This document shows positions 12,256 to 59,132 of a DNA stretch of 64,000 nt, in pieces. A model generated the notes under the pieces. The model was not told where the DNA came from and made no database searches. It saw only the letters and a list, made by a program, of their open reading frames with translations. A program made the position numbers and the translations under genes. Positions within the stretch are counted from its first letter, which is position 1; each line of letters starts with the position of its first letter. The stretch is from Kiritimatiellia bacterium. GTDB lineage: Bacteria > Verrucomicrobiota > Kiritimatiellia > WLWN01. The stretch covers positions 75,792-139,791 of the forward strand of contig WLWN01000001.1 of assembly GCA_012103575.1 (NCBI GenBank), read 5' to 3'.

Positions 12256-12863
12256 GAGCGCTTCACGATTGAGGTGTCGTGATGTAGCACGAAGAAAACC
12301 AGCCGATTACCTCGTCGGGAGAAAAACCCGGCGAATACATTCTCCAAAAACAGCCGTCTCTGTCGCCCCCTCCCCCTCCATGGCCGCTGTTGTTCCGTCC
12401 AGGCGGACCGAAGAAATCAAGGTGGTGGTACACCAATGTCCATAAGGCGTTTTGGCAAAAAGCCTGTTCCCGCCCAACGCCCGGCCCCGCAGACGAGTCA
12501 TATTCGTTTTCGCCCCGGATTCATCAATAAAGACAAGGCGACTTGGATCAAGTTTGGCCACCTCTTGGATCCACTGCTTTCTCAAGAGATTTACATCCGC
12601 CCGGTAACGCCTTGAGCTGCTTTCCGCTGTAGAGGGCCTGACGATGCCCACGCGGTCGGGGAGCGGTCTGTCCGGTTTCGTTGAAACGAGAGAGCCCACG
12701 CTGAAACGTTCTAAGATCTACACGATAAGAAGATGCGATATCGGCCTGGGAACCTTTGCCCATTTTGTAGGCATCTATCGCACGCCGCCGGATTTCTGCT
12801 GTTGCTATACTCGTGTCATGGAGTATAGATCTTCTAGAGAGGCATTTCAATCGTTAGATGCTC
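12256..12863 (-). mobile_element. IS630-family element, internally deleted copy (TA-flanked)
   Basis: Same termini as other copies; TA at 12254-12255 and 12864-12865; DDE region deleted at junction GGGAGAAAAACCCGG. Confidence 0.75.
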
Positions 12864-12867
12864 TAAT

Positions 12868-14566: not shown

Positions 14567-14994
14567 CGACTACCCAACCGATGGGATCCACCTCCAACCA
14601 ATCATACGTTTGTTGCGATATCAGGAAACGCCAATTGGCAAGTGGAAGTCGAAGACAGTAATCAAGATGGTCTGCCGGATCAAGTAAACGCGGTAATGGG
14701 CACGATTCCAAATGCTACAGATTTAGTTTGGAATGGGGGAGGGACAAGTAATCCTCCGCTTAGGGTTTTAGATGGAAATAATAATAACCAAATCGATGTT
14801 GGGGAAACGTTAGTGATCATCTATAACGGGACACATACGCTTTTCGAACGATTTTCTGGAGCTAGCCATATCCATGCAGAAACCAATTAAGAAAAAAGGA
14901 AAGACTTTATTGACGGAGTGTTTAATTCATGCGAAGCAGAGTGATGAGTCAAGAAGGCCTTAGACTATGAAAAATAGATCATGGGAGAAAGAGA

Positions 14995-15290
14995 CAGCGC
15001 CCCTCCAGGGCGCAGGATCTGTTCTCATGACCTTTCCTGGGGTTAAAACCCCAGGCTATATACCCTCACTGCGTTGCAGTGAAACAGGATTGAAGAGGTT
15101 GGAATTATGGATGAGATTGAAACTCTAGGTGGCATGTCCACACTGCATTGCAGTGAAGAAAGGTCGGATTTTGTATGGCGACAAATATGATGATTCCAAA
15201 GATGTCCCAACGGGACAAGGTGATACAGCCTGGGGTTTTGACCCCAGGAACGAGGGAACAACCCTTCCATTGCGCCCTGAAGGGGCGCTG
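14995..15290. repeat. MITE-2 copy 1 (hairpin-rich ~296-bp element with palindromic ends GCGCCCCTCCAGGGCGC / GCGCCCTGAAGGGGCGC)
   Basis: Second copy at 15615-15896; internal perfect palindromes CCTGGGGTTAAAACCCCAGG. Confidence 0.6.
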
Positions 15291-15348
15291 TTGAGGAGAG
15301 GAAAATGAGGAAAATAATGTTTAATTTAAATTTTACAGAAGGAGAAAA

Positions 15349-15594
15349 ATGAAAATAAAAGAATCCATAGCTGAAATCCAAGCCGTCGGACGTCGGATAT
15401 CCACAGAGTATGGACCTGGTATAAAAGCCTTGCTTAATCACTGCAAGGAATCCGCAAAGTCCTATAAAGATCAATTATTGCTCCATTCTAAACGACAGAT
15501 CCACAGAGTGGCCGAAACTTTGGCTGAGTACACAGCCGAGAAAGAGGATGAAACAGGGCAGGTTAAGAAGGCATTAGAAAATGAGAAGAAATAA
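15349..15594 (+). CDS. small hypothetical protein (81 aa) between the two MITE-2 copies
   Basis: ATG preceded by GGAGAAAA Shine-Dalgarno-like sequence; charged K/E-rich; no recognisable family. Confidence 0.3.
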   Translation: MKIKESIAEIQAVGRRISTEYGPGIKALLNHCKESAKSYKDQLLLHSKRQIHRVAETLAEYTAEKEDETGQVKKALENEKK

Positions 15595-15614
15595 ATCATG
15601 GGTGAAGAAGGTAC

Positions 15615-15896
15615 GGCACCCCTTCAGGGCGCAAGATCTTTTTTCATTACGTCTCCTGGGGTTGAAACCCCAGGCTATGCGTTGCAGTGAAAGAGGATGG
15701 AAGATGTTGGAATTATAGACGAGGTTGGACAGGTTGGCATGTTCACACATCATTGCAGTGAAGAGAGATCGGATTTTATAGGGTGACGAATATGATGACT
15801 CAAAAAGATGTCCCAATGGGACAAGGTGATACAGCCTGGGGTTTCAACCCCAGGAACCAGAAAACAATCATCCCATTGCGCCCTGAAGGGGCGCTG
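15615..15896. repeat. MITE-2 copy 2
   Basis: Near-identical architecture to 14995-15290 with scattered substitutions. Confidence 0.6.
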
Positions 15897-15946
15897 TCTA
15901 ATGAAAAAGAGTAAGAGCATGAATAAAGAACGTATAAATATAATAG

Positions 15947-16109
15947 CCTGGATCCGTCAGTTAAACGCGGTTTTCTGCACGAACCATTTGGGCCAAAAGG
16001 AATTACAAAAGAGCCTCGACGCACCCAGCAGGTGCGCCTGCGTTTTTTTGCAACCTTTTGCCTCCAAAGCATTCGCACAGAAATCCCACGTTTAACTGAC
16101 GGATCCAGG
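15947..16109 (+). mobile_element. MITE-1 copy 2
   Basis: Perfect TIRs; same internal sequence as copy 1. Confidence 0.75.
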
Positions 16110-16170
16110 AATAGGAAAACGTTCCGCCCCAAATCTTTTTTCTGCTATCTTCTTCGTATTCTGTGGTTTA

Positions 16171-17148
16171 ATGATCTTTCTCTTGTATGCGACAACCTCG
16201 ACAGCTAATCCTCTGGTCACGGTTACATCAAAAGTCGTGGGGACTCAACTGGAAGTTTCTCCCGTGCAAATGGCGGTGCCAAAAGGAATCGCCGGGTCTG
16301 TAAATGTGAACATTGTAGCAGGACTTGGAGGTGAAAATGAAACATCCCTTGCCCTAGCCGATGGCGTTCATATTGAGGCAACCCTACGGGGTCCTTCTTT
16401 TGCGGCCCGACAAACCTTTGGTCGCCCAAATGAACCCCTGTTGTTCCCGCCATTACCGCTAGTCGGCGATTATCAACTCGATGCTATTAAGCTGGTCGAT
16501 TCTGCAACCGGTAAAATCCGCCTCGAAGGTTCCCCCTCAAGCATCCCTATTTTTGTATTCAAAGAAGTGCTGGTTACCCGGGTAACTTCACGGCCGTTAA
16601 CCCTCGACGAGATTCAGGAAAAAGGGATTTTGATCGATGAATCCAATTTTCGGGCGGTGGAATTTGAAGTGGGGTTTGTGATCGACGGAAAAACGGTTCC
16701 GGTCAAGTTACCGGTGATTGCCCCCACGTTTAAAGAAGCCACAGAAATTATTCCTCAAGCAGAAATCGATGAAAAGATGGCGGCAGCCAATGTGATGAAT
16801 CAGCAACTTTCTCAGACAGCGGAGTTACCGCCGGAACTGGAAGCCGCAGGTCTAAACATTGAAATTCAAGGCATCAATTTTCAGTTTGTGGATACAACTT
16901 TAGAATTAGGTCTTGCTCTACAACCTCCTCCGATTCCTGCATTGATGGTGATTCCGGGGAATATTGGTTTTATCAATCAGTTTTTTAGTGTTCAGATTTT
17001 TATGGAAAATGGGGTGCCGGGAGGTTCGGGACTTAACGTGCATAATATGCAGGCCGAACTACTCCTGCCGGTGGGATCGGATTTGGTAGCTGGAACGTAT
17101 GAGGTTTCCGGCGATGATCCATTGCGTTTTGCGCGGACAGGAACGAAT
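16171..17148 (+). CDS. hypothetical protein fragment, 3' end runs into IS30
   Basis: ORF 16171-17187 continues into the IS30 left end at 17149; no recognisable motifs. Confidence 0.35.
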
Positions 17149-18194
17149 GGTAGAGTAACAATACAAGTGCAAAGGTCCGCAGCATAGTTCATTCTTTGGG
17201 TATCTGACCCCCCCCCAAAGGAGAACATAGAATGCCACGAACCTACGAACATTTAAACCGTTATGAACGAGAAGTGATAGCCCAGATGCTAAAAGAAAAA
17301 TATAGCTTATCTCAAATTGGCCGTCGCCTGGGCCGATCCCCCTCGACTATTTGGCGCGAATTTCGCCGTAATCGAGTCCGTGGCCGCTATTACCCAAGAC
17401 CCGCAAATGGCCTGGCTCAAAGCCGATTACAGCTAGCTCGAAAGCCTCAAAAAGTGATGGGAGCTAGCAAAGAACAAGTGGAGACTCTCCTGGCGAATAT
17501 TGGTCTCCAGAACAGATTGAAGGTCGAGGAAAGCTAGAAGGTGACCCTCCCATCAGTCGAATGATGATCTACCGCTACTTGTACAGTCCAAGAGGGGCTG
17601 GCTACCGAAAATACCTGCGTGGCCCCGGAAAGAAAAAACGAGCGACTCGGAAAAGCCATTCACGTATACACAACCAAACGATGATTGACCAACGCCCCGA
17701 AGAGGGTGAAAGTCGCAAGGTGGCAGGCCATTGGGAAGGTGACACTATTCAGGGCCAAACGAGAAAAGAGGCCTGTGTAGTCACTCTAGTAGATCGAGCG
17801 ACTCGATATCTCATCGCCGATCTTTTACCTCGATGCAATGCCGAATCGGTCAACCGTTCCGTACCTCAGTTCGCTGATTCAGGGCTCCCCTTTAAAACGG
17901 TGACTGTAGATAATGGCATGGAGTTTGCCAGCCATGCTAAACTACAGAAAAAAATAGCAACCCCCATTTTCTTTGCTGAAGGGAGAAACCCTTGGCAAAG
18001 AGGGAGCAACGAAAATACGAATGGTTTGCTTCGCCAGTTTTTCCCGAAGAAAACCGACTTTGCTGCCCACAGCTCCGCTCAGTTGAGCTGGGCTGTGGAG
18101 TTACTGAATAATAGGCCGAGAAAATGCTTAGAATATAGAACGCCCAAAGAAATGATGGACAGCTTCGGTTTTGCACTTGTAAGTTGAGTCTGCA
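17149..18194 (+). mobile_element. IS30-family element (type 1), transposase frameshifted
   Basis: Transposase split into ORFs 17232-17537 and 17561-18187 by a 1-nt deletion (GAATATTGG versus GAAGTATTGG in the intact copy). Confidence 0.8.
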
Positions 18195-32248: not shown

Positions 32249-32308
32249 GTAGCGCGAAGTTGACCTGACTTCAACGCCTGGATCACTGGAATAAGAAATT
32301 TCCAGACG

Positions 32309-33357
32309 GGTAGAGTAACAATACAAATGCAAAGGTCCGCAGCATAGTTCATTCTTTGGGTATCTGACCCCCCCCAAAGGAGAACATAGAATGCCACGAA
32401 CCTACGAACATTTAAACCGTTATGAACGAGAAGTGATAGCCCAGATGCTAAAAGAAAAATATAGCTTATCTCAAATTGGCCGTCACCTGGGCCGATCCCC
32501 CTCGACTATTTGGCGCGAATTTCGCCGTAATCGAGTCCGTGGCCGCTATTACCCAAGACCCGCAAATGGCCTGGCTCAAAGCCGATTACAGCTAGCTCGA
32601 AAGCCTCAAAAAGTGATGGGAGCTAGCAAAGAACAAGTGGAGACTCTCCTGGCGAAGTATTGGTCTCCAGAACAGATTGAAGGTCGAAGAAAGCTAGAAG
32701 GTGACCCTCCCATCAGTCGAATGACGATCTACCGCTACTTGTACAGTCCAAGAGGGGCTGGCTACCGAAAATACCTGCGTGGCCCCGGAAAGAAAAAACG
32801 AGCGACTCGGAAAAGCCATTCACGTATACACAACCAAACGATGATTGACCAACGCCCCGAAGAGGGTGAAAGCCGCAAGGTGGCAGGCCATTGGGAAGGT
32901 GACACTATTCAGGGCCAAACGAGAAAAGAGGCCTGTGTAGTCACTCTAGTAGATCGAGCGACTCGATATCTCATCGCCGATCTTTTACCTCGATGCAATG
33001 CCGAATCGGTCAACCGTTCCGTACCTCAGTTCGCTGATTCAGGGCTCCCCTGTAAAACGGTGACTGTAGATAATGGCATGGAGTTTGCCAGCCATGCTAA
33101 ACTACAGAAAAAAATAGCAACCCCCATTTTCTTTGCTGAAGGGAGAAACCCTTGGCAAAGAGGGAGCAACGAAAACACGAATGGTTTGCTTCGCCAGTTT
33201 TTCCCGAAGAAAACCGACTTTGCTGCCCACAGCTCCGCTCAGTTGAGCTGGGCTGTAGAGTTACTGAATAATAGACCGAGAAAATGCTTAGAATATAGAA
33301 CGCCCAAAGAAATGATGGACAGCTTCGGTTTTGCACTTGTAAGTCTCCACCTCTGCA
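32309..33357 (+). mobile_element. IS30-family element (type 1), apparently intact
   Basis: Left end GGTAGAGTAACAATACAA..., right end ...TTTTGCACTTGTAAGT...TGCA; single 323-aa transposase ORF. Confidence 0.85.
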
Positions 33358-36043: not shown

Positions 36044-36060
36044 CCCGTTTTAGTATATTA

Positions 36061-36223
36061 CCTGGATCCGTTAGTTAGACGTGGGATTTCTGTGCGAATG
36101 CTTTGGAGGCAAAAGGTTGCAAAAAAACGCAGGCGCACCCGCTGGGTGTGTCGAGGCTTTTTTGTAATTCCTTTTGGCCCAAATGGTCCGTGCAGAAAAC
36201 CGCGTTTAACTGACGGATCCAGG
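36061..36223 (-). mobile_element. MITE-1 copy 3 (inverted orientation)
   Basis: Perfect TIRs; located 18 bp upstream of tadA start. Confidence 0.75.
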
Positions 36224-36306
36224 TATTATCTCTATCTAGGATTCCTTATCCGATATTGACATTTAATGTATTTGATTTTTATGCGTAACGCTATACACTC
36301 CTGCCC

Positions 36307-39996: not shown

Positions 39997-40159
39997 AACC
40001 CGTTCATTTTCTGATGACACTCTTTTCGGTCCACGAATCTAGAAAGTTTGTGATCAGACAATCATCATTACGCTTTCTGTACATTACAAGCATGCGTACA
40101 TTCATTTCAAGGTTTTTTCTTCCAAAGCATTAGATTAGAACTCCCAGCTTATGCTAATC

Positions 40160-41206
40160 GGTAGAGTAACAATACAAGTGCAAAGGTCCGCAGCATAGTT
40201 CATTCTTTGGGTATCTGCCCCCCCCCAAAGGAGAACATAGAATGCCACGAACCTACGAACATTTAAACCGTTATGAACGAGAAGTGATAGCCCAGATGCT
40301 AAAAGAAAAATATAGCTTATCTCAAATTGGCCGTCGCCTGGGCCGATCCCCCTCGACTATTTGGCGCGAATTTCGCCGTAATCGAGTCTGTGGCCGCTAT
40401 TACCCAAGATCCGCAAATGGCCTGGCTCAAAGCCGATTACAGCTAGCTCGAAAGCCTCAAAAAGTGATGGGAGCTAGCAAAGAACAAGTGGAGACTCTCC
40501 TGGCGAAGTATTGGTCTCCAGAACAGATTGAAGGTCGAAGAAAGCTAGAAGGTGACCCCTCCCATCAGTCGAATGACGATCTACCGCTACTTGTACAGTC
40601 CAAGAGGGGCTGGCTACCGAAAATACCTGCGTGGCCCCGGAAAGAAAAAACGAGCGACTCGGAAAAGCCATTCACGTATACACAACCAAACGATGATTGA
40701 CCAACGCCCCGAAGAGGGTGAAAGTCGCAAGGTGGCAGGCCATTGGGAAGGTGACACTATTCAGGGCCAAACGAGAAAAGAGGCCTGTGTAGTCACTCTA
40801 GTAGATCGAGCGACTCAATATCTCATCGCCGATCTTTTACCTCGATGCAATGCCGAATCGGTCAACCGTTCCGTACCTCAGTTCGCTGATTCAGGGCTCC
40901 CCTGTAAAACGGTGACTGTAGATAATGGCATGGAGTTTGCCAGCCATGCTAAACTACAGAAAAAAATAGCAACCCCCATTTTCTTTGCTGAAGGGAGAAA
41001 CCCTTGGCAAAGAGGGAGCAACGAAAACACGAATGGTTTGCTTCGCCAGTTTTTCCCGAAGAAAACCGACTTTGCTGCCCACAGCTCCGCTCAGTTGAGC
41101 TGGGCTGTAGAGTTACTGAATAATAGACCGAGAAAATGCTTAGAATATAGAACGCCCAAAGAAATGATGGACAGCTTCGGTTTTGCACTTGTAAGTTGAG
41201 TCTGCA
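40160..41206 (+). mobile_element. IS30-family element (type 1), transposase frameshifted
   Basis: Transposase split into ORFs 40242-40700 and 40552-41199 by a 1-nt insertion in a C-run (GACCCCTCCC versus GACCCTCCC). Confidence 0.8.
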
Positions 41207-42641
41207 CATACGCAAAGTCGGTCCGGGTCCCATTCCCGTATTCACGACGTTCGGCACGGGTAGGTCCTATATAATCGTACGTGGCCACCAGACCATTCTG
41301 GTCTGTTATGCTTTGCTTACGTTCGAGCTCATCGTACGTACAGGTAACAACACGGCCTCCTGGATAAATACATGAAAGCATGTTGTCCACTCCGTCATAG
41401 GTGCAACTGTTTGTTTCTCCGTTAAGAACTTCTTGAATGATATAAGACAGGGAATCATAACTACGCGTGATCACCGAGTCATTGTCTTGGACATAAATGA
41501 TTCTGGATAACCCATCATATTGACAGCTTTCAAAGAGGGTGTTCGAAGAAATGCCGGGACCGGGCAACACATTTTTAGCCATAAGACGATCAAGCTGATC
41601 ATAGATATTTGACATGATGCTGCCATTGGCATCAATGCTCTGAACGAGGTTATCGTACACGTCATAGAAACTGCTATGGGTAGTGCCATCTGCATAGATG
41701 GTTAAGACCTCACGATCTAAGGGGTCATATCCGTAAGTGGTTGTATTCCCGTTATCATCGGTTATGGACGTGAGACGCGAAGAGTCATCCCAGACCCGGC
41801 TAATGGTAATGATATCAATAAAATTGCCACTTCCGGTACCATCGTCGGTTAAATCGTTCATGCTACTTGTAAGGCGATTGAGACCATCGTATTCATATCG
41901 AGATCTATTCCCCAAGGCATCAATCAAAAGCATATGATTATCGCGAGAGTCGTACGCGTATTCGATCGTATTAGAAGTATTATCGATGCTCTTAATACGA
42001 CGATTGAGGTTGTCATATTGATAGGTTGTCGTGAAAAGTTAGGGTTCCCCTGGTCAGATTTTTCTATCTCATCGACTTGTAATACGTTGTTATTGGCATC
42101 GTAGGCATAGGTAGAGATGTTGCTCTTAGCGTCTGTGCCAATAGATACACGATGGGCAGTATCGTATACGGTAAAGGTCTCGTTGCTATTATCGTTTTTA
42201 GTCCGTACAACTTGGGAGGCATCACTATAATAGAACTCAGTAATGGATTGGCCATCACCAATGGGCCATTGTGTAGTCGAATCAAAAAACTCGGTTTCTG
42301 TGCGAATACGACGATCCATAGTATCGTAAATATAAGCTGTTTCTGACAGACGGACATTATTTACCTAACCGATCAGATCGGTTAACTCACCATCGGTCTG
42401 CTCTGAGACACGATTATGATTGTCGTCATAGTGATAGGTCGCGACATTGCCCATGGAATCGGTTACCGCAACGGGTCGATTGTACTCATCATACACATAA
42501 GCTGTTATGTGTGGGGAACCTTCAAGCCCTTATAAGGTTCTAATCAGACTTCCGTTTTTATTGTAATCATATTGTACGGTTGACTGGTCAGGGCCACCTC
42601 CTGCTCGAACCACTTGAAAGAGTTTATCGCGTTCGTCATTC
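41207..42641 (-). pseudogene. RHS/YD-repeat protein, internal fragment with frameshifts, both ends cut by IS elements
   Basis: Repeated YD motifs (YEYDGLNRL, YGYDPLDRE, YDQLDRL, TYDELERK, YAYDANNNV); ORF pieces 41091-41933, 41924-42319 and further. Confidence 0.6.
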
Positions 42642-43867
42642 GGTGGATTGTAAAATTAAATGCCGCAAAAAATGGACCTGAGAGCTTCTGCTCATGCGGC
42701 GATCTCCAAATCGAAACACTCCTGTGCGGGTTTGTATTCTAGGATCTTGCGAGGATAGTTGTTAATCCATTTTTCAATCTCACCAATACGGTCGATGGTA
42801 TATTTTCCGATGTTGTCTCCTTTGGCGACGAAACGACAAACCATACGGTTGGCATTTTCGTTGGAGCCTCGTTCCCAGGAAGAATACGGGTGAGCATAAT
42901 AGAGTTTAACACGTCTCTTTTTGCTAAATCCGGAACGTTCCATCTGCTCCACGTCGAGAAGCTCGCTCCCGTTATCGGCTGTAATCGACTTGAACATCGA
43001 TCTGAATGGGCCAACTCCCGTCGATCTTTCGATCGCTTTGAGGGCCTGCAGAACCGATGCCTGTGTTTTATCCGAAAGTTTTCTCACCCTTAGCATTCGG
43101 GTCTTTCTTTCTACTAACGTCATTAAAACCGGTTTTGAAGTTCCTTTTCCGCCGACGATCAAATCCAATTCCCAGTGCCCAAATTCCTCGCGTTTTTCTA
43201 CGGTCTTAGGTCGTTTTTCGATACTGGTCCTTCGGGCATGTTGCTTTTTAACCCGCTTAATAGCACGTCTTTTTCGTTTTATCCGTTTTCGTTTTTCCCA
43301 TAGGGACTCGTTGCTCACCCCCGGGATGAGACCTTGGTCAATATAGGTATACAGCGTTTTTGTACTCACCGCTGCAGGTCTCTGCTCTTGTTTAAGCAAA
43401 GGAGCAACCACATCGGGTGAGCGTTTGTGAACAAGAATGTGCTCGCTGGTAAACACGGCCGCTTCATGATGCTTTCCAAGCTTAAGCTCAGGTCCCTTGG
43501 CCGTCGCATTTAGATCATGAAGTTCCTGGGCTCGATCACTGCTGTATGCTTTCTTCTTTCGCGGCTCTGTATCGAAATGCTCTACCTCCCCACGTTTGAT
43601 TTCGCGCTCTATGGTTCGACGATGCCTTCCCAGATAGCTAGTAGCTATCTCCAAAGGACGTCCTCGGTTTTTGAGCATTGTTTCAATCATGATCCGTTCT
43701 TTCTGTGTCAAATGCTTGCCTTTTCGGGGATGAATACTACTCTTGATTTGTTCCATGTCTTTTTCCTTTTTTTGTCTTCTGTCGAGTTTCTAAATCTAGA
43801 AGATTTCGGCATGGAACACTCCTGTTTTACAATATCTTCTTTTGGGCATTTAATATTACAATTCTCA
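42642..43867 (-). mobile_element. IS30-family element (type 2), copy A
   Basis: Ends TGAGAATTGTAATATTAAATGCC / GGCATTTAATTTTACAATCC; near-identical to copy at 49959-51183 in inverted orientation. Confidence 0.75.
42692..43756 (-). CDS. IS30-family transposase (354 aa)
   Basis: GHWELDLIVGG...ITADNGSEL...YYAHPYSSWERGSNENANRMV DDE block. Confidence 0.8.
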   Translation of the reverse strand: MEQIKSSIHPRKGKHLTQKERIMIETMLKNRGRPLEIATSYLGRHRRTIEREIKRGEVEHFDTEPRKKKAYSSDRAQELHDLNATAKGPELKLGKHHEAAVFTSEHILVHKRSPDVVAPLLKQEQRPAAVSTKTLYTYIDQGLIPGVSNESLWEKRKRIKRKRRAIKRVKKQHARRTSIEKRPKTVEKREEFGHWELDLIVGGKGTSKPVLMTLVERKTRMLRVRKLSDKTQASVLQALKAIERSTGVGPFRSMFKSITADNGSELLDVEQMERSGFSKKRRVKLYYAHPYSSWERGSNENANRMVCRFVAKGDNIGKYTIDRIGEIEKWINNYPRKILEYKPAQECFDLEIAA

Positions 43868-43922: not shown

Positions 43923-44126
43923 ATGGATACTTCGATTATACAGAAGATGAATACACAAGAACAGTTGCAAACTATGGAGCAGCTTTGGGACAACTTGTGT
44001 AGACGTTGTGATTACCCTCTCACGCCTGAATGGCACGAAGACATTCTTAATGAGAGAAAGGCTATTCTCGACTCAGAAAATGCTTCATTGCTTTCCTTAG
44101 ATGAAATCAGGAAGCAACGAACCTAA
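43923..44126 (+). CDS. putative addiction-module antitoxin (TIGR02574-like)
   Basis: 67 aa; MEQLWDNL...LTPEWHEDILNERKAIL pattern; stop overlaps start of downstream toxin (ATGA). Confidence 0.5.
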   Translation: MDTSIIQKMNTQEQLQTMEQLWDNLCRRCDYPLTPEWHEDILNERKAILDSENASLLSLDEIRKQRT

Positions 44127-44428
44127 TGTTTCAAAAAGAAGTCTTGGTCCTCAAAGAAGTAAAAGAGGACATTGAATTAGGTAAAACTTTTTATGACTCA
44201 ATAGAACCTGGTGTTGGCCACTACTTTGCAAGCTGTATTTTAGCTGATCTCGAATCGTTACCGTTTTATTCAGGTGTACACAAGAAGATTTTTGGAGTCT
44301 ATCAAGCTTTATCAAAGAGATTCCCGTTTGGTATATATTACGAAATTAAAAATGAAACGATCATCGTTGTGGCTATACTTAACATGAGGCAAAATCCTGA
44401 GTCAATCCACAAAAGATTAACACGCTAA
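44126..44428 (+). CDS. RelE/ParE-family toxin
   Basis: 100 aa; C-terminal FPFGIYYEIKNETIIVVAILNMRQNP typical of ParE/RelE fold. Confidence 0.6.
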   Translation: MFQKEVLVLKEVKEDIELGKTFYDSIEPGVGHYFASCILADLESLPFYSGVHKKIFGVYQALSKRFPFGIYYEIKNETIIVVAILNMRQNPESIHKRLTR

Positions 44429-45435: not shown

Positions 45436-46031
45436 CTAACTTAAGCATGATTTCCTTTTGTTTAACCAATGGCGATTTCTGTGAGCAGGCACAATCATTT
45501 CGTGCCTTGGTTTAGTCAGCAAATGATAGTTTTTTCGTCGTCTCTTTACAGCTCGAGGTTCACTTCTGCCAGGGCGTTGCCGCAAGGGTCTTTGGGTCAT
45601 GCTTTCATAGAGCATAAAAATCAAACCGAAACGTTCCTTCCGACTCATTCTCGCTTGATTTAGATTCGGCTCCCAACTGCGCAAGGCTTGAAGCGAAGTT
45701 TTGAAGCTAATTTGCCGAACGGGCAAACCAGCCTCTTCAGCCGCCTCATACATGATCCGGCGCATGCAGTTGTAGGCAATAAAATACATCACCATCTCTT
45801 TTCGGATCATTTCCGGGCTCTTGCATCGTAAGATATCCATACCCAGCGTTGTTTTTATATCACGGAAAAAGAGTTCAACATCCCAACGCCGAAAATACAC
45901 ATCGGCTAAATCTTTGGCAGGGTACTTTTCTGCATCTAATAATGTGGTGACCAGATAGATCACTTTAGATCGAAAGCCGGGCTGATTGATCGTTATTTTA
46001 ACTTGGCGTAGGAACAAACTAGAGCGCTTCA
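45436..46031 (-). pseudogene. IS4-family (DDE_Tnp_1) transposase, C-terminal fragment; 5' part removed by IS630 insertion
   Basis: YFRRWDVELFFRDIKTTLGMD (Y-R-E-K signature) ; ORF 45436-46056 runs into IS630 end. Confidence 0.6.
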
Positions 46032-46871
46032 CGATTGAGGTGTCGCGATGTAGCACGAAGAAAACCAGCCGATTACCTCGTCGGGAGAAACCTCTTCGGA
46101 CGCTTGTGTGATCGCTTCAGATAGTTCCTGCTGACTGCGGGCTGCAAGGCTGCCCAACCGATTCTTTATCTTGCCCCATATTTTTTCAATGGGGTTGGAA
46201 TCGGGGCTGTAGGGTGGAAGGAATCTTACATGGGCCCCACATGACTCAGTGAGTTCAATGACCTTGGGATTGTGATGGACGCGAAGATTGTCCATGATGA
46301 CGATGTCTTCAGGTGAAAGGGTCGGGAGAAAAACCCGGCGAATATATTCTCCAAAAACAACCGTCTCTGTCGCCCCCTCCCCCTCCATGGCCGCTGTTGT
46401 TCCGTCCAGGCGGACCGAAGAAATCAAGGTGGTGGTACACCAATGTCCATGAGACGTTTTGGCAAAAAGCCTGTTCCCGCCCAACGCCCGGCCCCGCAGA
46501 CGAGTCATATTCGTTTTCGCCCCGGATTCATCAATAAAGACAAGGCGACTTGGATCAAGTTTGGCCACCTCGTTGGATCCACTGCTTTCTCAAGAGATTT
46601 ACATCCGCCCGGTAACGCCTTGAGCTGCTTTCCGCTGTAGAGGGCCTGACAATGCCCACGCGGTCGGGGAGCGGTCTGTCCGGTTTCGTTGAAACGAGAG
46701 AGCCCACGCTGAAACGTTCTAAGATCTACACGATAAGAAGATGCGATATCGGCCTGGGAACCTTTGCCCATTTTGTAGGCATCTATCGCACGCCGCCGGA
46801 TTTCTGCTGTTGCTATACTCGTGTCATGGAGTATAGATCTTCTAAAGAGGCATTTCAATCGTTAAATGCTC
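46032..46871 (-). mobile_element. IS630-family element with ~150-bp internal deletion (TA-flanked)
   Basis: TA at 46030-46031 and 46872-46873; transposase ORFs 46505-46858 and 46029-46568. Confidence 0.8.
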
Positions 46872-47050
46872 TAGCAGAATCGTTGGGGTTCAGGCCATGA
46901 TTGTTTTCCCACTAATTCGGCAAGCCATCTAGATCGGTATCCACTCCAGGATCAAAACTGAACAAATTCTTTACTTGTCCGACGTTTGCAATGGCATAAT
47001 CATCGGCGATCCCTCCTGTCCAGGGATATTAGTTGGTATACCCACCACAA

Positions 47051-47416
47051 TCAACCAATCGTAAAAATTTGCGGCAATCGTTTTGATCTGCGCAAGATTA
47101 AGAGGGACATAATTTCCCTGACTTGAAAAGCCATATACCACATATTGGAGACCACATCCTGTTCGGGAATGGCTGTTGGTGGGAGATGGGTTTTTAGATA
47201 CTGATACCCCTGAAAGGCAATATGCTTGACCTGTCCATCAAGGACTGGAGAGTAGTCATCAGGGGATACATTGCTATTAATCACTCCCCGACTCGTCCAC
47301 CATTGGGGCGGAGCAGAGAAAACATGGGACGATGCGCCCATGCTAAACAGCAAGGTTAATATCCATAGGGCTATGCTTTTAATCCGAAACATTATCAATT
47401 TTTTCCTTATCTTCAC
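47051..47416 (-). CDS. hypothetical secreted protein
   Basis: 121 aa with N-terminal signal-peptide-like segment; no family recognised. Confidence 0.3.
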   Translation of the reverse strand: MKIRKKLIMFRIKSIALWILTLLFSMGASSHVFSAPPQWWTSRGVINSNVSPDDYSPVLDGQVKHIAFQGYQYLKTHLPPTAIPEQDVVSNMWYMAFQVREIMSLLILRRSKRLPQIFTIG

Positions 47417-47450
47417 TTTACGTTTTTGAATCCTCGATGTTCGATCCTGG

Positions 47451-49125
47451 CTATTCAGCTTTCGAACCCTCAGGGACTATTCGTGTAACTCCCCATCTGG
47501 AGATCGCCACGTGGTTGTATTGAATCGTGTTGAAAGCGGTCAGGATCAGGCTGTTTACAAGATTCGTGTCCGTTGTCGGCCAAGTCGATCGTGTTTCACT
47601 TCCGAGCGTAAGCGTTCCTCCAATCGTTAATCCGCCACTGATGGTATCACCTGCTTTATTGACATAGTTCGTCAACTGACTGGATGAAGCAAAGGTAGAG
47701 GCATCCAGACCGTCGAGCAGGTCCGCATTCCAATTCGTCCACAGAGTTGTGGAGGCCGTGCTCTTCTGGTTGAAATTAATCTGCTCATTTCCGTCATAGG
47801 TTATCGTTCCATCTATAAAATCGATTTCACTGCGATCATTCGACCCGGGATTAATACCTATATCACGAATATTCAGGGCACCGGTCATCGTGTCGCCCGC
47901 TTTGGTCACATAACGTCCATCGGCGGCGTTAGTGCTTATCGTTTCTGGCCAGGTGGTCAGCGCCGTCCCACCAAGCGTTAACGATTGGGCACTTACATCT
48001 CCGCCTACCGACAGGCTCCCACTGACCGCTCCTCCCATTTTATCTACATAATTGGTCAACTGACTATTTTGAGCAAAGCTCGAGGACTCCAACCCGTCAA
48101 TGAGATCCGCATTCCAATTCGTCCACAGAGTCGTGGAAGCCGTACTTTTCTAGCTAAAATTGATCTGTTCGGTGCCATCATAAGTTATTGTTCCATCTAT
48201 AAAGTCAATTTCACCACGATCGTTTGACCCGGGGTTAATACCGATGTCGCGAATATTCAGAGCGCCGGTCATGGTATCGCCCGCCTTGGTCACATAGCGA
48301 CCATCGGCGGCATTAGTGCTTATCGTTTCTGGCCAGGTGGTCAGCGCCGTCCCACCAAGCGTTAACGATTGGGCACTTACATCTTCGCCTACCGACAAGC
48401 TCTCACTCACGGCTCCTCCCGTTTTATCTACATAATTGGTCAACTGACTATTTTAGACAAACGTCGAGGCCTCTAAACCGTCAATGAGATCGGCATTCCA
48501 ATTTGTCCATAGAGTTGTGGAGGCCGTACTCTTCTGGTTGAAAATTGATCTGTTCGGTGCCGCCGTAAGTTATCGTCCCATCTATAAAGTCGATTTCACC
48601 ATCCTGATTCGACCCGGGGTTAGCCCCAATATGACTAACTTCCAGTGGGCCGGTCATCGTGTCTCCTGATTTGCTTACATAACAACCATCGGCGGCATTG
48701 GTGCTTATGGTTTCCGACCAATTGGTGATCGCTGTCCCGTCCAGCGTCGACGATTGAGCGACGCTTACATCTCCTGATACTGACAAGCCACCACTGATCG
48801 TATCACCTGTTTTATTCACATAACGACCATCAGCCTGATTCGTGCTTATCGTCTCTAGCCAGTTCGTAATCGTGCTCCCATTAAGAGTCAAGGAACCCGC
48901 CGTTACATCAGCGTCTACCGTCAGATCTTGTTTGAACAGCACATTACTGTTTACCGCTAGATCACCTTCCATGATAATGGCATTAGTTGCTATTTCTGCC
49001 TGAATGAGTAAAGAGAAGCTCAACAGAACCCCTAAAAAACAAAAACACCGCCTCAGAGAATAAAACCCAAAGAAAGAGGGGGGGAAGGAATCTTTATGGT
49101 TGGTCTCAAACAGTTGTCTTTTCAT
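47451..49125 (-). pseudogene. phage-tail-fibre-repeat protein with signal peptide, interrupted by a TAG, a TAA and a 1-nt insertion
   Basis: Three ORF pieces (48481-49125, 48150-48443, 47451-48092); recurring DGRYV(T/N)K(A/T)GDT(M/I)(T/S)G motif; tandem 384-bp units. Confidence 0.55.
47657..48808. repeat. tandem repeat, period 384 bp (128 codons), about 3 units, inside the tail-fibre-like gene
   Basis: TATCTACATAATTGGTCAACTGACTA recurs at 48041 and 48425; diverged homologue at 47657. Confidence 0.7.
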
Positions 49126-49182
49126 GGCTATATGCTCCCTTTTTTTACTATTCGTTAGATCATTGAATTATTGATTTAATAT

Positions 49183-49883
49183 TTATCTTATAAATACGGT
49201 TCCCCTAGGTCTGAAGATGATGGTTCCATTTGGTTTGAGTATCTGTTCATCATAACTACCCCCTTTTATTTCTAAGATATCTTGATCGAAAGCTACAGCC
49301 AAACCGCCTTCAACCGTTTCCTTGGGCCCATGACCATTTTCGACTATTGGTTTCACGCCATCATAGAGGTCATCGCCTGTAAGTGAATTGGCGTATAGAA
49401 TGATATGTGCGCTCTGTATATTCGTTGGATCCGTGCCGCGTTGGTACTCTTGGACATTGATGAACCCGTCACCATCCAGGTCTTGGGTTCCATCAATCTG
49501 GTCAAGCGGGTCTAAAAAGGATCTGTTTAATTCATAGACATCATCAATGCCATCCTGATCGGTATCCAGCGCATTGGTTATGGCCACGCGTTGGACATAA
49601 TAGAAGCCCATCGAATTCGTTGATGTCCCGAGCAGTTGCCCGCTAGCCTGCTGACCAAGGGCCATGTAGGTGGCCACTGTCATATCGGTTAGGGTCGGGC
49701 CATGAAGCAAAGTATAGTAATAGTTTGTACTGGACTGGTGGTGAATTTAAGAGTTGTTCAAATTATGGAACTGAACATCGGTGATTTGAAAATCCTGAGC
49801 ACTAACAAAATAACTAAGAGAAAGAGATAGAAGAAGTGCGGCGCCTGTCCTCCCCAAAAATTTACCTACTTTAAACCCCATTC
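49183..49883 (-). pseudogene. secreted protein with calcium-binding-like D-x-D-x-D-G repeats; signal peptide separated from body by frameshift/stop
   Basis: Signal peptide MRMGFKVGKFLGRTGAALLLSLSLSYFVSA ends in TAA (~49740); body ORF 49183-49710 with DTDQDGIDD and DLDGDGFIN motifs. Confidence 0.35.
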
Positions 49884-49958
49884 TCATCCTAAACACTATC
49901 TCCTTTTTATATTTAAAAAATGACAATGGAAAGATTTAAAGATTGTGTCAACTAAAAT

Positions 49959-51183
49959 GAGAATTGTAATATTAAATGCCCAAAAGAAGATATTGTAAAA
50001 CAGGAGTGTTCCATGCCGAAATCTTCTAGATTTAAAAACTCGACAGAAGACAAAAAAAGGAGAAAGACATGGAACAAATCAAGAGTAGTATTCATCCCCG
50101 AAAAGGCAAGCATTTGACACAGAAAGAACGGATCATGATTGAAACAATGCTCAAAAACCCAGGACGTCCTTTGGAGATAGCTACTAGCTATCTGGGAAGG
50201 CATCGTCGAACCATAGAGCGCGAAATCAAACGTGGGGAGGTAGAGCATTTCGATACAGAGCCGCGAAAGAAGAAAGCATACAGCAGTGATCGAGCCCAGG
50301 AACTTCATGATCTAAATGCGACGGCCAAGGGACCTGAGCTTAAGCTTGGAAAGCATCATGAAACGGCTGTGTTTATCAGCGAGCACATTCTTGCTCACAA
50401 GCGCTCACCCGATGTGGTTGCTCCTTTGCTTAAACAAGAGCAGAGACCTGCAGCGGTGAGTACAAAAACGCTGTATACCTATATTGACCAAGGTCTCATC
50501 CCGGGGGTGAGCAACGAGTCCCTATGGGAAAAACGAAAACGGATAAAACGAAAAAGACGTGCTATTAAGCGGGTTAAAAAGCAACATGCCCGAAGGACCA
50601 GTATCGAAAAACGACCTAAAACCGTAGAAAAACGCGAGGAATCTGGGCACTGGGAATTGGATTTGATCGTCGGCGGAAAAGGAACTTCAAAACCGGTTTT
50701 AATGACGTTAGTAGAAAGAAAGACCCGAATGCTAAGGGTGAGAAAACTTTCGGATAAAACACAGGCATCGGTTCTGCAGGCCCTCAAAGCGATCGAAAGA
50801 TCGATGGGAGTTGGCCCATTCAGATCGATGTTCAAGTCGATTACAGCCGATAACGGGAGCGAGTTTCTCGACGTGGAGCAGATGGAACGTTCCGGATTTA
50901 GCAAAAAGAGACGTGTTAAACTCTATTATGCTCACCCGTATTCTTCCTGGGAACGAGGCTCCAACGAAAATGCCAACCGTATGGTTTGTCGTTTCGTCGC
51001 CAAAGGAGACAACATCGGAAAATATACCATCGACCGTATTGGTGAGATTGAAAAGCGGATTAACAACTATCCTCGCAAGATCCTAGAATACAAACCCGCA
51101 CAGGAGTGTTTCGATTTGGAGATCGCCGCATGAACAGAAGCTCTCAGGTCCATTTTTTGCGGCATTTAATTTTACAATCCACC
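49959..51183 (+). mobile_element. IS30-family element (type 2), copy B
   Basis: Same termini as copy A; right end abuts a MITE-1 copy lacking its first ~8 TIR nucleotides. Confidence 0.75.
50069..51133 (+). CDS. IS30-family transposase (354 aa)
   Basis: Near-identical to 42692-43756 product (few substitutions). Confidence 0.8.
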   Translation: MEQIKSSIHPRKGKHLTQKERIMIETMLKNPGRPLEIATSYLGRHRRTIEREIKRGEVEHFDTEPRKKKAYSSDRAQELHDLNATAKGPELKLGKHHETAVFISEHILAHKRSPDVVAPLLKQEQRPAAVSTKTLYTYIDQGLIPGVSNESLWEKRKRIKRKRRAIKRVKKQHARRTSIEKRPKTVEKREESGHWELDLIVGGKGTSKPVLMTLVERKTRMLRVRKLSDKTQASVLQALKAIERSMGVGPFRSMFKSITADNGSEFLDVEQMERSGFSKKRRVKLYYAHPYSSWERGSNENANRMVCRFVAKGDNIGKYTIDRIGEIEKRINNYPRKILEYKPAQECFDLEIAA

Positions 51184-51338
51184 CGTCAGTTAAACGCGGT
51201 TTTCTGCATGAACCATTTGGGCCAAAAGGAATTACAAAAAAACCTCGACGCACCCAGTGGGTGCGCCTGCGTTTTTTTGCAACCTTTTGCCTCCAAAGCA
51301 TTCGCACAGAAATCCCACGTTTAACTGACGGATCCAGG
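51184..51338 (+). mobile_element. MITE-1 copy 4 (left TIR truncated at IS junction)
   Basis: Begins CGTCAGTTAAACG directly after IS30 type 2 end; right TIR intact; ends 25 bp upstream of serS ATG. Confidence 0.65.
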
Positions 51339-51363
51339 AAATAGAAAGATGGGGAGCCACCAT

Positions 51364-56388: not shown

Positions 56389-57357
56389 ATGAATCGTAGA
56401 ATCGAAGATTCTAGTATCAAGCATCAGGCATCCAACACCAAGCATTCAATATCCAGCCCCCAGTCCTTGCCATCAAAGCGCTCATCGTTCATCTGGGCAT
56501 GCCGAGACCAAGTTGTGCAGCTAGGTCCTCGAACGCTTATTATGGGGATTCTAAATGTAACCCCTGACTCTTTTTTTGATGGAGGTAATTACTTTACCCT
56601 TGATCAAGCTATTCAACGCGGATTAACCATGGTAAAGGAGGGGGCCGATATCATTGACGTGGGTGGAGAGTCAACACAACCGGATTCCGTACGTATATCG
56701 GTTCAGGAAGAATTGAAGCGTGTCATTCCTGTTGTAAGAGAACTTGTCAAACAAGGAAATACACTGATTTCCGTGGATACAATGAAAGCCGATGTGGCTC
56801 GGGAAGCGGTTCGGGAGGGGGCTCACATTATTAATGATATTTCGGGGTTAACCTTTGATCCAGAAATGGTTGAGCTGGTTTGTCAATCACGTGTTGGTGT
56901 TCTGATAGTGCATATGCAAGGACAACCGGAAAACATGCAGCAAAATCCAACGTATGAGGATGTTATTAGTGAGGTCCATGAATATTTGTTATCGCGCGTT
57001 GCTGTCCTGGTTAAAAAAGGGGTCGCTTTAAACAGGATTGCTATTGATCCTGGCATTGGATTTGGTAAAACAGTAGAACATAATCTAAAATTGTTAATGG
57101 CGGTAAACCGTTTTACATGTCAACGACCTATCGTTGTCGGCCTTTCTCGAAAAAGGTTTCTAGGCACTTTAACCCATAGATCGACAGATGAACGACTTTC
57201 GGCAAGTTTAGGGGCTGCCGCGTATGCCATAGGGCGTGGTGCTCATGTTTTACGTGTTCATGATGTCCAGGAAACAGGTGATGTGGCAAAGGTCGTAGAC
57301 CGTCTTTTAAAAGAGGAATATAATGGTACAGGTATGGAACCAGATCCGTGCGATTGA
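56389..57357 (+). CDS. folP: dihydropteroate synthase
   Basis: GILNVTPDSFFDGG motif; true start may be downstream of 56389 (non-ATG). Confidence 0.8.
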   Translation: MNRRIEDSSIKHQASNTKHSISSPQSLPSKRSSFIWACRDQVVQLGPRTLIMGILNVTPDSFFDGGNYFTLDQAIQRGLTMVKEGADIIDVGGESTQPDSVRISVQEELKRVIPVVRELVKQGNTLISVDTMKADVAREAVREGAHIINDISGLTFDPEMVELVCQSRVGVLIVHMQGQPENMQQNPTYEDVISEVHEYLLSRVAVLVKKGVALNRIAIDPGIGFGKTVEHNLKLLMAVNRFTCQRPIVVGLSRKRFLGTLTHRSTDERLSASLGAAAYAIGRGAHVLRVHDVQETGDVAKVVDRLLKEEYNGTGMEPDPCD

Positions 57358-58192
57358 GTTTAGTGCATTGCTCGAGATATTCGCTTTGGCGATTTTATTC
57401 TATTACTTGATTTTGTTTTTTAAAGGGACACGTGGGGCTGCGGTGCTTACGGGATTTATGTTGGTGTTTATTGTCCTGTTGATCTTAACTCAAATTTTTC
57501 GGCTCGATACACTCAATTGGATTTTACAACGGTTTTCGGGTTTTCTAGTCATTGCCTTTGTTATCATTTTTCAACCAGAAATTCGTCGGGCCCTTGCTGA
57601 ATTAGGGAAACAACATGTTTTTGTGTCTACAAAAAGCGAACGGAGTTTGATCGATGATATTGTCAAAGCTGTTTTGCATTTAGCCGAACGAAAGATCGGG
57701 GCGCTGGTTGCCATTGAACGTGAAATTGGAATGCGTGCGATTCAGGAGTCTGGCACAAGAGTCGATAGTTTGGTGACACCTGAACTATTAGCCACTATTT
57801 TTTTCCCTCAAACCCCGCTCCATGATGGGGGGGTTATTATTCAAAGAAATCGTGTCGTGGCTGCGGGTTGTTTTTTCCCCCTTTCTCAGCGGGCTGAGCT
57901 TAGTAAATCATTGGGGACCAGGCATCGTGCAGCTATTGGGATTACCGAAGAAACCGATTCGTTGGTGATTGTTGTATCGGAAGAAACAGGCGCTATATCG
58001 GTCGCCTATAATGGGCGGTTGAGTAGAGGGTTAGATGAAGAACGCCTACGTCGATTATTATCTGGGGTTTTAATTCGGCGGAAAAAAAAGACCCAAACGC
58101 GACTCACAAAAATGCAAGAACAATTGGATCTCACGCCTGAAGGCGTTGCCAGGGCAGATGATTTAGCAGCGGAGTCAGAACATGTCGGATAA
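57323..58192 (+). CDS. cdaA: diadenylate cyclase (c-di-AMP synthase)
   Basis: N-terminal TM helices; DAC domain with LHDGGV and TRHRAA motifs. Confidence 0.85.
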   Translation: MVQVWNQIRAIEFSALLEIFALAILFYYLILFFKGTRGAAVLTGFMLVFIVLLILTQIFRLDTLNWILQRFSGFLVIAFVIIFQPEIRRALAELGKQHVFVSTKSERSLIDDIVKAVLHLAERKIGALVAIEREIGMRAIQESGTRVDSLVTPELLATIFFPQTPLHDGGVIIQRNRVVAAGCFFPLSQRAELSKSLGTRHRAAIGITEETDSLVIVVSEETGAISVAYNGRLSRGLDEERLRRLLSGVLIRRKKKTQTRLTKMQEQLDLTPEGVARADDLAAESEHVG

Positions 58193-59132
58193 GTGGCCAG
58201 GATTAGAACGAGGCGTGTTTAGCCATAAAGGTCTTAAAATAGCGGCCTTGGTGTTAGCCGTGATTACTTGGTTTGCTGTTCATAAAGCGATACGTTTTGA
58301 GACAGAAGTAGATGATATTCCGATCACCATATTAGTGGATCAAGGATGGGCTGTATTGGAGCGGTCTGCGGATACCGTCAATGTTCGGTTCCGTGGGGCC
58401 CAAGAAGATATCTTGCCTCTTCGCGCGGATACGATTCAGGCCGTTATTGACATTAAAGGTCAATCCTTTGAAGGAACGCGGACCATCGAGATCGAGCCTA
58501 AACATGTCAGAGTACATGGCGCCGCACGGCCGGTATTGATTCGGCCAAAAAAAATTACACTGCGCTTGGATCAGGAAGCGGAAAAATTAGTGCCTGTAAA
58601 AGTGGATATGAAAGGAACGGCTTCACCGGGGTATGAAATCGAAAAAGTAGAGATTTCACCGCTATCGGTTATGCTTAGAGGTCCTAGCAAGTTGATCGAA
58701 AACATCCATGAACTGCGTACAAAACCGATTGATATTGAGGGACGTGTACAATCCTTCAAAATCCGGACAGACTTTCTTTCACCAAGCACAGATTGGGTGG
58801 GGTATATTGATCCGGAAAAAGTGACGGTTGATGTGACCTTTGTTGAACGGTCAACGTATAAAAGCTTTGAACAAGTGTCTTTACACGTCCTGATGAATCC
58901 AGGGATCAGTCCTTCTGTCACGATCAATCCAGCCTATGTGCAGATAAAAATAAAGGGCCGTTCAGAGGTTGTAGAATCGCTTGAACAAGACTGGATTACC
59001 GCGTATGTCGATGGTTCTTCTTTAAAATCTGCTGCACGGTATCAGTTGCCTGTTCGTGTTCATGCGCCTACGAGGATCATCGTAGAAAGTATTGTTCCTG
59101 ATACGGTAGATATTAGTATCGGCGATTTGTAG
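58182..59132 (+). CDS. cdaR: YbbR-domain protein, CdaA regulator
   Basis: Overlaps cdaA end; N-terminal TM segment then repeated YbbR-like beta-rich domains. Confidence 0.6.
   Translation: MSDKWPGLERGVFSHKGLKIAALVLAVITWFAVHKAIRFETEVDDIPITILVDQGWAVLERSADTVNVRFRGAQEDILPLRADTIQAVIDIKGQSFEGTRTIEIEPKHVRVHGAARPVLIRPKKITLRLDQEAEKLVPVKVDMKGTASPGYEIEKVEISPLSVMLRGPSKLIENIHELRTKPIDIEGRVQSFKIRTDFLSPSTDWVGYIDPEKVTVDVTFVERSTYKSFEQVSLHVLMNPGISPSVTINPAYVQIKIKGRSEVVESLEQDWITAYVDGSSLKSAARYQLPVRVHAPTRIIVESIVPDTVDISIGDL

Follow-up and report, generated by a model that had tools for sequence, protein, structure and literature searches.

This study examined a 64,000-nucleotide stretch of contig WLWN01000001.1 (GenBank assembly GCA_012103575.1), here called the window, from the genome of 'Ca. 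Patea custodiens', a symbiont of the sponge Mycale hentscheli, and within it a minus-strand gene at 47470-49125 that encodes a repetitive, fibre-like protein. The fibre gene is very probably a fixed pseudogene and the fibre member of a conserved gene cassette that has decayed in this symbiont. Two frameshifts and two nonsense codons interrupt its frame when it is compared with its own paralogous repeat units, and, judged from this broken frame, the gene as it stands would not give a full-length product. The cassette family to which the gene is assigned (TSP3 / PxWW / RHS) was defined in the present analysis and is not a curated one.

The ancestral frame opens with an ATG at 49125 and closes with a TGA at 47472-47470, a span of 1656 nt that amounts to exactly 552 codons after removal of one +1 and one -1 shift, which cancel. 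In its present state the locus holds three separate minus-strand open reading frames (ORFs), of 214 amino acids (49125-48481), 97 amino acids (48443-48150) and 213 amino acids (48092-47451). In GenBank, the pieces of the pseudogene are listed as three hypothetical proteins, GKR87_00700 (213 amino acids), GKR87_00705 (82 amino acids) and GKR87_00710 (214 amino acids). Within the ancestral frame, Tandem Repeats Finder reported a single array at 47655-48795 with a period of 384 bp, 3.0 copies and 82% matches, and a repeat search of the window (repeat family D6) gave start-to-start distances between units of 384 and 385, the longer spacing being due to the extra base of the first lesion described below. 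These results bear out the original prediction of three 384-bp tandem units on the minus strand between 49125 and 47451. In protein register, the three 128-codon units of the fibre shaft lie at 48813-48429 (unit 1), 48428-48045 (unit 2) and 48044-47661 (unit 3). The further proposal that each unit consists of two related halves held only in part: the motif does recur, but the modules are unequal, a 47-amino-acid module (SLTLxGTxxTxWxETISTNxADGRYVxKxGDTMTG) being followed by one of 81 amino acids that closes with a second but degenerate version of the motif, NYVDKTGGAVSxSLSVGxDVSAQ.

The lesions were located by three-frame translation and by aligning the units with one another. The first is a +1 frameshift, one extra base in the TTTTC at 48540-48544, where unit 1 reads ATCAATTTTCAACCAG and unit 3 reads ATTAATTTCAACCAG; it ends the 214-amino-acid ORF at 48481. 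The second is an in-frame TAA at 48453-48455 in place of the CAA (Gln) of unit 2, and the third an in-frame TAG at 48150-48152 in place of the CAG (Gln) of units 1 and 3. All three had been recognised in the original prediction, which described a decaying gene inactivated by small changes, and each was recovered at its position here. A fourth lesion, which had not been part of that description, is a net -1 frameshift between 47598 and 47515. The shift must fall in this interval because the C-terminal motif IQPRGDLQMGSYTNSP is in the frame of the ATG and not in that of the shaft; the two frames differ, and both are open only here. Because this lesion sets the real C-terminus off the shaft frame, the TAG at 47453-47451 is not the ancestral stop.

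Both termini of the reconstructed protein are distinctive. The first 44 residues (48994-49125, minus strand) were examined by a hydropathy scan and present, in order, an RR pair (residues 25-26), a 15-residue hydrophobic core, CFCFLGVLLSFSLLI (Kyte-Doolittle mean of 2.6 over residues 27-41), and IQA followed by E, a pattern of hydropathy and charge that looks like a signal peptide and agrees with the earlier description of a signal-peptide protein built of tandem repeats. Several relatives (P0012, P0014, P0017, P0027 and P0031) likewise start with signal peptides. At the other end, the conserved C-terminal motif PRGDLQMGSYTNSP and the ancestral TGA occupy 47470-47514 on the minus strand, and the true C-terminus reads …IQPRGDLQMGSYTNSP before the TGA. 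When the pattern P.{0,3}G[GDNES][ILVM].MG.[YFW] was run across all six frames of the 64-kb window, its single match fell at 47514-47470.

The cassette was delineated in other bacteria by using the PxWW-module protein, encoded by the gene directly downstream of the fibre gene, as an independent anchor in JGI metagenomes, where a scan returned 179 relatives of this protein, and 80 loci were kept. Homologues of this downstream gene (position 0) are single intact ORFs of about 207 amino acids, with a signal peptide, a PxWWxxRGV module, three DYAxxNxGQxK motifs (NxGQLK) and TSP3 repeats. In the loci found through them, the preceding gene ends in …PQGDLSMGSFTN…, and, of the 73 loci for which upstream sequence is present, 44 have PxQGDxSMGx(Y/F)T at the end of the ORF directly upstream of the PxWW gene. 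Local clustering placed one family at position -1 in 29 loci and TSP3 proteins at positions -2 and +1, with the -2/-1/0 order conserved. The cassette order is a signal-peptide TSP3 protein (-2), a fibre (-1), the PxWWxxRGV/TSP3 protein (0) and a large variable protein that is most often of the RHS/YD-repeat type (+1). In the searches made here, neither the PxWWxxRGV N-terminal module nor the PxQGDxSMGxYT C-terminus was matched by a Pfam or NCBIfam model, and the intact cassette appears to be undescribed and uncharacterised.

The proteins at positions -1 and +1 vary in composition. Among 38 position -1 proteins searched against Pfam, Gly_rich_2 was found in 8, YadA_head in 8, Collagen in 2 and Laminin_G_3 in 2, a distribution from which the fibre shaft would be exchangeable between constant termini. 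Among 37 proteins at position +1, RHS_repeat was found in 13 (best match at 1e-75) and DUF6531 in 7; this Pfam count replaced one based on a regular expression for YD motifs, which under-counted the RHS partners (9 of 44). Genes for pseudopilins (N_methyl/T2SSG) and an N_methyl/SBP_bac_10 gene are found close to the cassette at locus L014; no prepilin-type N-terminal motifs were found in the window. The same JGI contig, which carries relative P0006, contains at 6916-10348 a 184-amino-acid signal-peptide ORF with YadA-like head repeats that overlaps the start of a 967-amino-acid fibre ORF by 26 nt. The pair resembles a single fibre gene that a frameshift or a sequencing error has divided, and breakage of such long repeat genes may therefore be common.

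The fibre gene of the window is assigned to the fibre slot of this cassette on the combined basis of its termini, its position and its similarity to other members. The C-terminal signature of the slot, P-x-(Q)-G-D-(L/I)-x-M-G-x-(Y/F)-T, stands within the last 15 or so residues of the protein, although off the shaft frame. The gene lies on the same strand as, and immediately upstream of, the PxWW gene, which begins 77 nt from the ancestral stop. In BLASTP searches the reconstructed protein found mostly position -1 proteins, and the alignments run up to their C-terminal ends at a low identity of 20-25%; residues 40-547 of the fibre align with 6-543 of the 544 residues of the protein from locus L034, and residues 334-549 with 98-320 of the 322 residues of that from L025. 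Additionally, seven relatives (P0006, P0017, P0027, P0028, P0030, P0031 and P0040) share four features with the fibre, namely a signal peptide (putative in the fibre itself), a WxNWNADLLDG module, a DARYVNxSGDxMTG module and a C-terminal IPPQGGISMGxYTN.

Decay in the window extends beyond the fibre gene, and the earlier description had not reached the flanking genes or the downstream RHS gene, which are dead as well. The four cassette members, all of them on the minus strand, follow the canonical order, and all are broken, with at least 11 point lesions in addition to IS630 and IS30 insertions of insertion sequence (IS) elements. Gene -2 (49183-49926) comprises an ORF for a signal peptide (49926-49747) and, in the same frame beyond a TAA at 49749-49747, a body of TSP3/EF-hand-like sequence (49710-49183); its C-terminal half matches -2/-3 proteins at other loci, and it is probably a nonsense-mutated gene. 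Gene 0 (46874-47392), with its PxWWxxRGV module, three NxGQxK motifs and TSP3 repeats, is spread over three frames by two frameshifts, is interrupted by a single in-frame stop and truncated at 46873 by an IS630-family element (46017-46873, minus strand) with helix-turn-helix (HTH) and DDE_3 ORFs. When its frames are joined, gene 0 is collinear with the intact homologues of about 207 amino acids and 45-49% identical to them over 83-92% of the length. The +1 member is an RHS/YD-repeat remnant (41091-42592, minus strand) with two in-frame stops, one frameshift and both ends lost to IS elements; the ORF at 41091-41933 matches Pfam RHS_repeat at 1.7e-18, and the remnant is similar to the RHS proteins of locus L008. 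An RHS/YD protein is thus present at the locus as a broken internal fragment, whereas neither a C-terminal toxin domain nor an immunity gene was found with it, the C-terminal end of the remnant having been replaced by an IS30-family element at about 41206. The former membership of the RHS gene in the operon is inferred because the remnant is collinear with the cassette on the same strand.

Several observations weigh against reading the locus as a dead member of a functional cassette family. In the 214-amino-acid N-terminal ORF the start codon and the putative signal peptide are intact, and a GGGAG box resembling a Shine-Dalgarno sequence lies 9 nt ahead of the start, so that a truncated product is possible. 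The locus might in that case be partly alive: this ORF, which comprises the signal peptide, the N-terminal segment and about 1.5 repeat modules, would yield a short secreted protein whose role is either residual or newly gained. This would be unlikely given that an IS30 element lies 32 nt upstream of the first gene of the operon, that this first gene itself has a stop, and that the product would be without the C-terminal motif of the family and would have its last 19 residues out of frame. Consensus assemblies may, moreover, hide minor intact alleles. An exhaustive HMMER search of 1.84 billion representatives returned 84 relatives at E <= 0.001, of which the strong ones were the gene's own fragments only, and no intact orthologue of the fibre gene was found in public data; the ancestral sequence was for this reason rebuilt from paralogous units and the distant family. 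A word-indexed protein search gave 9 weak relatives, the best of them 32% identical. Gene -2, with its stop, may alternatively be two separate ORFs. An RHS partner is found downstream in only about a third of the loci, and in the window the RHS remnant lies about 4 kb from the cassette, across IS and other DNA. Structure prediction with AlphaFold2 failed for both proteins tried, with predicted local distance difference test (pLDDT) scores of 47.6 for the PxWW-module protein with a four-sequence alignment and an unusable 33 for the 213-amino-acid ORF without an alignment.

The interpretation as a pseudogene of a bacterial cassette must further be set against the possibility that the gene is a prophage tail-fibre remnant, that is, phage DNA. 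The motifs shared with phage tail fibres, which the original prediction had pointed out, are readily found. PHROG tail-fibre profiles 13229 and 21722 match at 1.1e-15 and profile 4465 at 2e-12, mainly through the DGRYVxKxGDTMTG module, and in a scan of IMG/VR the fibre matched a 1543-amino-acid protein on the 126.7-kb viral contig UViG_3300035698_007508 (BLASTP 8e-14, 32% identity over 183 amino acids), which adjoins a large terminase gene (PHROG 675, 6e-50) and contains the repeats IDIENHASLSTTLWTNWNADLLDGIDSTAF. Phage long tail fibres of these kinds share with the fibre gene a serial arrangement of ...DGRYVxKxGDTMTGxL... and ...STTLWTNWNADLLDG(L/I)DxSxF... modules, and among the farther relatives are giant signal-peptide proteins, some of which end in Peptidase_S74 or Gp53-like_C. 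The resemblance to phage tail fibres is regarded as genuine but confined, on sequence comparison, to short modules.

The remaining evidence does not favour a phage origin. A match to Pfam tail-fibre repeat models, which had been proposed as a test, was not obtained: a Pfam-A hmmscan of the reconstructed protein at E <= 1 gave only sub-threshold unrelated matches, and an NCBIfam scan gave none above threshold. A phmmer search against PDB sequences was empty at E <= 1, and tblastn against 50,697 GenBank phage genomes gave no match to the fibre protein. Unlike phage long tail fibres, the fibre has a signal-peptide-like segment in place of a virion-attachment N-terminus, gives no Pfam match to a tail-fibre repeat, a Peptidase_S74 domain or a receptor-binding tip, and ends in the cassette motif. 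No tail, baseplate or chaperone genes were found around it, its neighbours being cassette genes, IS630, IS4 and IS30 elements, a ParE-like ORF and housekeeping genes, and its BLAST matches are to position -1 proteins of non-phage loci. A prophage remnant is therefore quite improbable, and the expression 'domesticated phage tail fibre' overstates the relationship, in that the termini and the neighbourhood are those of a bacterial cassette family in which other members carry YadA-head, collagen or glycine-rich shafts.

The age of the repeat units bears on whether the gene is a phase-variable contingency locus, switched by slipped-strand mispairing or, as had also been suggested, through recombination between its 384-bp units. 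Tandem repeats in surface-protein genes are a classic substrate for such switching. The three 128-codon units were compared after deletion of the extra base, with Nei-Gojobori estimates of synonymous divergence (dS) and of the ratio of nonsynonymous to synonymous divergence (dN/dS). The units are 77-85% identical in DNA and 76-90% in protein, with dS of 0.73-1.12 and dN/dS of 0.07-0.15 between them, and the deficit of nonsynonymous changes relative to neutrality is strong (binomial P of 1.6e-10 to 6.5e-16). By these estimates, the units are old structural repeats of the shaft that were long under purifying selection, and not a young recombining array. Since they diverged long ago under strong purifying selection, the gene was functional through most of its history. 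An array this old and diverged, neither homogenised nor recombined, therefore argues against a repeat-mediated switch. In addition, the run at the first lesion is only a T4, four separate events would be needed to restore the frame, and the window and four further assemblies are all in the same state, one of them being a strain variant by a synonymous single-nucleotide polymorphism. Neither a hypermutable tract nor near-identical repeats nor ON/OFF variants were seen, and the switch proposed in the original prediction is highly improbable.

The comparison with other assemblies likewise addresses whether errors of sequencing or assembly, such as those of nanopore reads at homopolymers, have introduced the stops and frameshifts into a gene that is in fact a single intact ORF. 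The source genome is a hybrid long-read/short-read assembly (PMC7157528), and one of the lesions does lie in a short T run. Four other assemblies of the locus were recovered by exact look-up of the 214-amino-acid ORF and by a scan of GTDB representative genomes. Three of these are 100% identical to the window, namely L001 (GCA_012271395.1), L003 (Logan SRR10090331; its contig occurs in 3 samples) and L004 (JAALKB010000298.1, the SPAdes contig NODE_9695, with a coverage of 13), and the fourth, L002 (an ENA assembly, SAMN12718693), differs solely by a synonymous GCT/GCC change (C/T) at 48757. Both SAMN12718693 and SRR10090331 are M. hentscheli data sets (Storey et al. 2020, PMC7157528). The short-read contigs of the locus are small, 1.6 to 3.6 kb, because their ends fall in flanking IS copies. 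The separately made short-read assemblies (ENA, Logan and SPAdes) agree across all four lesions, two of the lesions are substitutions, and the neighbouring genes carry lesions while the housekeeping genes are clean. With the stop positions unchanged in four assemblies, assembly error, the alternative against which the original prediction was to be checked, is essentially refuted and is left with a negligible probability.

Equally negligible is full expression by recoding, through programmed frameshifting and readthrough or through reassignment of TAG and TAA to Gln: both internal stops do stand for Gln (CAA to TAA, CAG to TAG) and UUU_C could in principle slip +1, but nonsense codons arise most commonly by C-to-T change in a Gln codon, four independent events would be required, the first shift has neither a slippery heptamer nor a stimulatory stop, and the flanking cassette genes are broken too. 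The window uses the standard code. Its long ORFs end in TAA (11), TAG (10) or TGA (10), so that TAA or TAG closes 21 of 31, with the SerRS, TilS and FtsH genes terminating at TAG, and the window encodes just three tRNAs, Glu-CTC, Pro-CGG and Pro-TGG, none of them a suppressor. Taken together, the lesions, their presence in independent data and the standard code support a fixed pseudogene.

The fibre gene and its cassette can be compared with several known systems. The filamentous stalks of polymorphic toxins are built of RHS or filamentous-haemagglutinin repeats; tail-fibre repeats occur in them as a less common central filamentous module, combined with several secretion routes (Zhang et al. 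2012, PMC3482391). The fibre gene resembles the stalk modules of these toxins (Zhang et al. 2012) in being a predicted Sec-exported repeat filament that is genetically tied to RHS/YD proteins. In polymorphic toxins, however, the tail-fibre repeats lie inside the toxin polypeptide, whereas here a separate, toxin-less fibre gene stands between two TSP3 genes, and no PAAR, VgrG, TpsA or immunity gene was seen in the 64-kb window. YadA-type heads and bacterial collagen-like proteins provide a second comparison: other position -1 proteins of the cassette carry a YadA_head, Collagen or Gly_rich_2 shaft flanked by the same termini. These alternative shafts suggest a trimeric, modular surface fibre, as trimers are formed by collagen, YadA heads and phage tail fibres alike. 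The fibre studied here differs from YadA and collagen fibres in having no autotransporter beta-barrel, LPXTG or other known anchor, and it matches none of these Pfam families itself. Lastly, the window resembles other cases of gene decay in IS-rich host-associated genomes, with many IS copies and lesions clustered in genes for surface or secreted proteins beside intact housekeeping genes; as decay, it is ordinary for a pseudogene in the IS-rich genome of a symbiont. Searches of two M. hentscheli papers (Storey et al. 2020, PMC7157528; Rust et al.) found nothing relevant on pseudogenisation or transposases in this symbiont.

From these comparisons, a mechanism can be proposed for the intact system. 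The ancestral protein would have been a Sec-exported protein of about 551 amino acids, composed of the signal peptide, a 'GDLxVxxN' segment, the shaft and the C-terminal IQPRGDLQMGSYTNSP, with the shaft made up of one 47-amino-acid module followed by three 128-amino-acid units carrying DGRYVxKxGDTMTG and STTLWTNWNADLLDGLDxSxF. Working with its two TSP3 calcium-binding partners, and in analogy to the filamentous stalks of polymorphic toxins, the fibre may have formed a calcium-stabilised extracellular structure, probably a trimer, for carrying or presenting the RHS-type effector encoded downstream. In the sponge-associated lineage the cassette may have become dispensable and been lost through relaxed selection. 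A broader and more tentative proposal, which is possible but stands well short of probable, is that the intact locus encodes an undescribed four-part extracellular apparatus of bacteria of the Kiritimatiellae or Planctomycetes-Verrucomicrobia-Chlamydiae (PVC) type and of other environmental bacteria, in which a probably trimeric fibre with exchangeable shafts (of the phage-tail-fibre-like, YadA-head, collagen or glycine-rich kind) docks by its C-terminal motif to the calcium-binding partners and serves to display or deliver an RHS toxin independently of type VI (T6SS), type V (T5SS) or Tc components, the Patea copy being a fossil lost on adaptation to the sponge.

The neighbourhood of the cassette is rich in mobile elements, dispersed repeats making up 14.7% of the window, in which the GC content is 45.05%. 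An IS30-family element (49958-51183, plus strand) ends 32 nt upstream of gene -2 and has an inverted, 99% identical twin at 42642-43867 (pair I1). The twins, of 1226 bp each, bracket 6.1 kb containing the dead cassette, IS630, an IS4 fragment and a ParE-like ORF, a layout that resembles a composite transposon or an inversion substrate. Inversion of the bracketed segment was considered and is not needed, the cassette and the RHS remnant being collinear on the minus strand. Between IS630 and the RHS remnant lie the IS4-type fragment, the ParE-like ORF and the IS30-family copy at 42642-43867; the ParE-like ORF (44126-44428, plus strand) has a weak Pfam match (E of 0.0076, below threshold) and is the only ORF in a stretch of about 1.5 kb, otherwise non-coding, that separates the IS4 fragment from the IS30 copy. 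The four IS630-family copies or fragments (1898-2434, 3278-4242, 12314-12865 and 46017-46873) carry their HTH and DDE_3 ORFs in overlapping frames, and short-read contigs break there. A second IS30-like family of about 1.05 kb is represented by three full copies and one partial copy (8351-8692, 17145-18194, 32299-33344 and 40156-41206); in the copy that adjoins the RHS remnant, the transposase is split into two ORFs (40242-41199). A further dispersed repeat of 165-180 bp, 95-98% identical and present in both orientations (10700-10865, 15940-16118, 36056-36235 and 51173-51347), resembles a miniature inverted-repeat transposable element or an IS end, and one copy directly follows the IS30 element at 51183.

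Just past the cassette, the genes for SerRS, TilS, FtsH, FolP, CdaA and YbbR are intact. The pair encoding CdaA (a diadenylate cyclase) and YbbR, at 57323-59132, adjoins FolP and FtsH; this arrangement is common in PVC and Gram-positive bacteria. At the other end of the window, the region 8200-16100 has few long ORFs and several IS fragments and may hold further decayed genes. The L004 contig (3189 bp), which covers positions 46821-50009 of the window, is labelled 'Gammaproteobacteria bacterium MH1_Bin6'; bounded by IS elements, it was probably mis-binned in a public metagenome-assembled genome (MAG). Gammaproteobacteria was rejected as the taxon of origin, the same proteins being recorded on a Kiritimatiellae contig: the records of the fibre fragments (NKB22922-24), of FtsH (NKB22930) and of TilS (NKB22929) all read 'MAG: … [Kiritimatiellae bacterium]'.

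For the annotation of this genome, the findings mean that GKR87_00700, GKR87_00705 and GKR87_00710 are pieces of one dead gene and that the two genes flanking it are pseudogenes as well. IS elements and point mutations are eroding this part of the genome of 'Ca. Patea custodiens', the symbiont that produces pateamine, a finding useful for gauging the symbiont's shift towards host restriction. Additionally, the dead gene led to a recurrent cassette, present at 80 metagenome loci among 179 candidates and frequently linked to RHS toxins. Should this cassette turn out to serve delivery or display, it would represent an extra route for RHS effectors in phyla without the usual systems.

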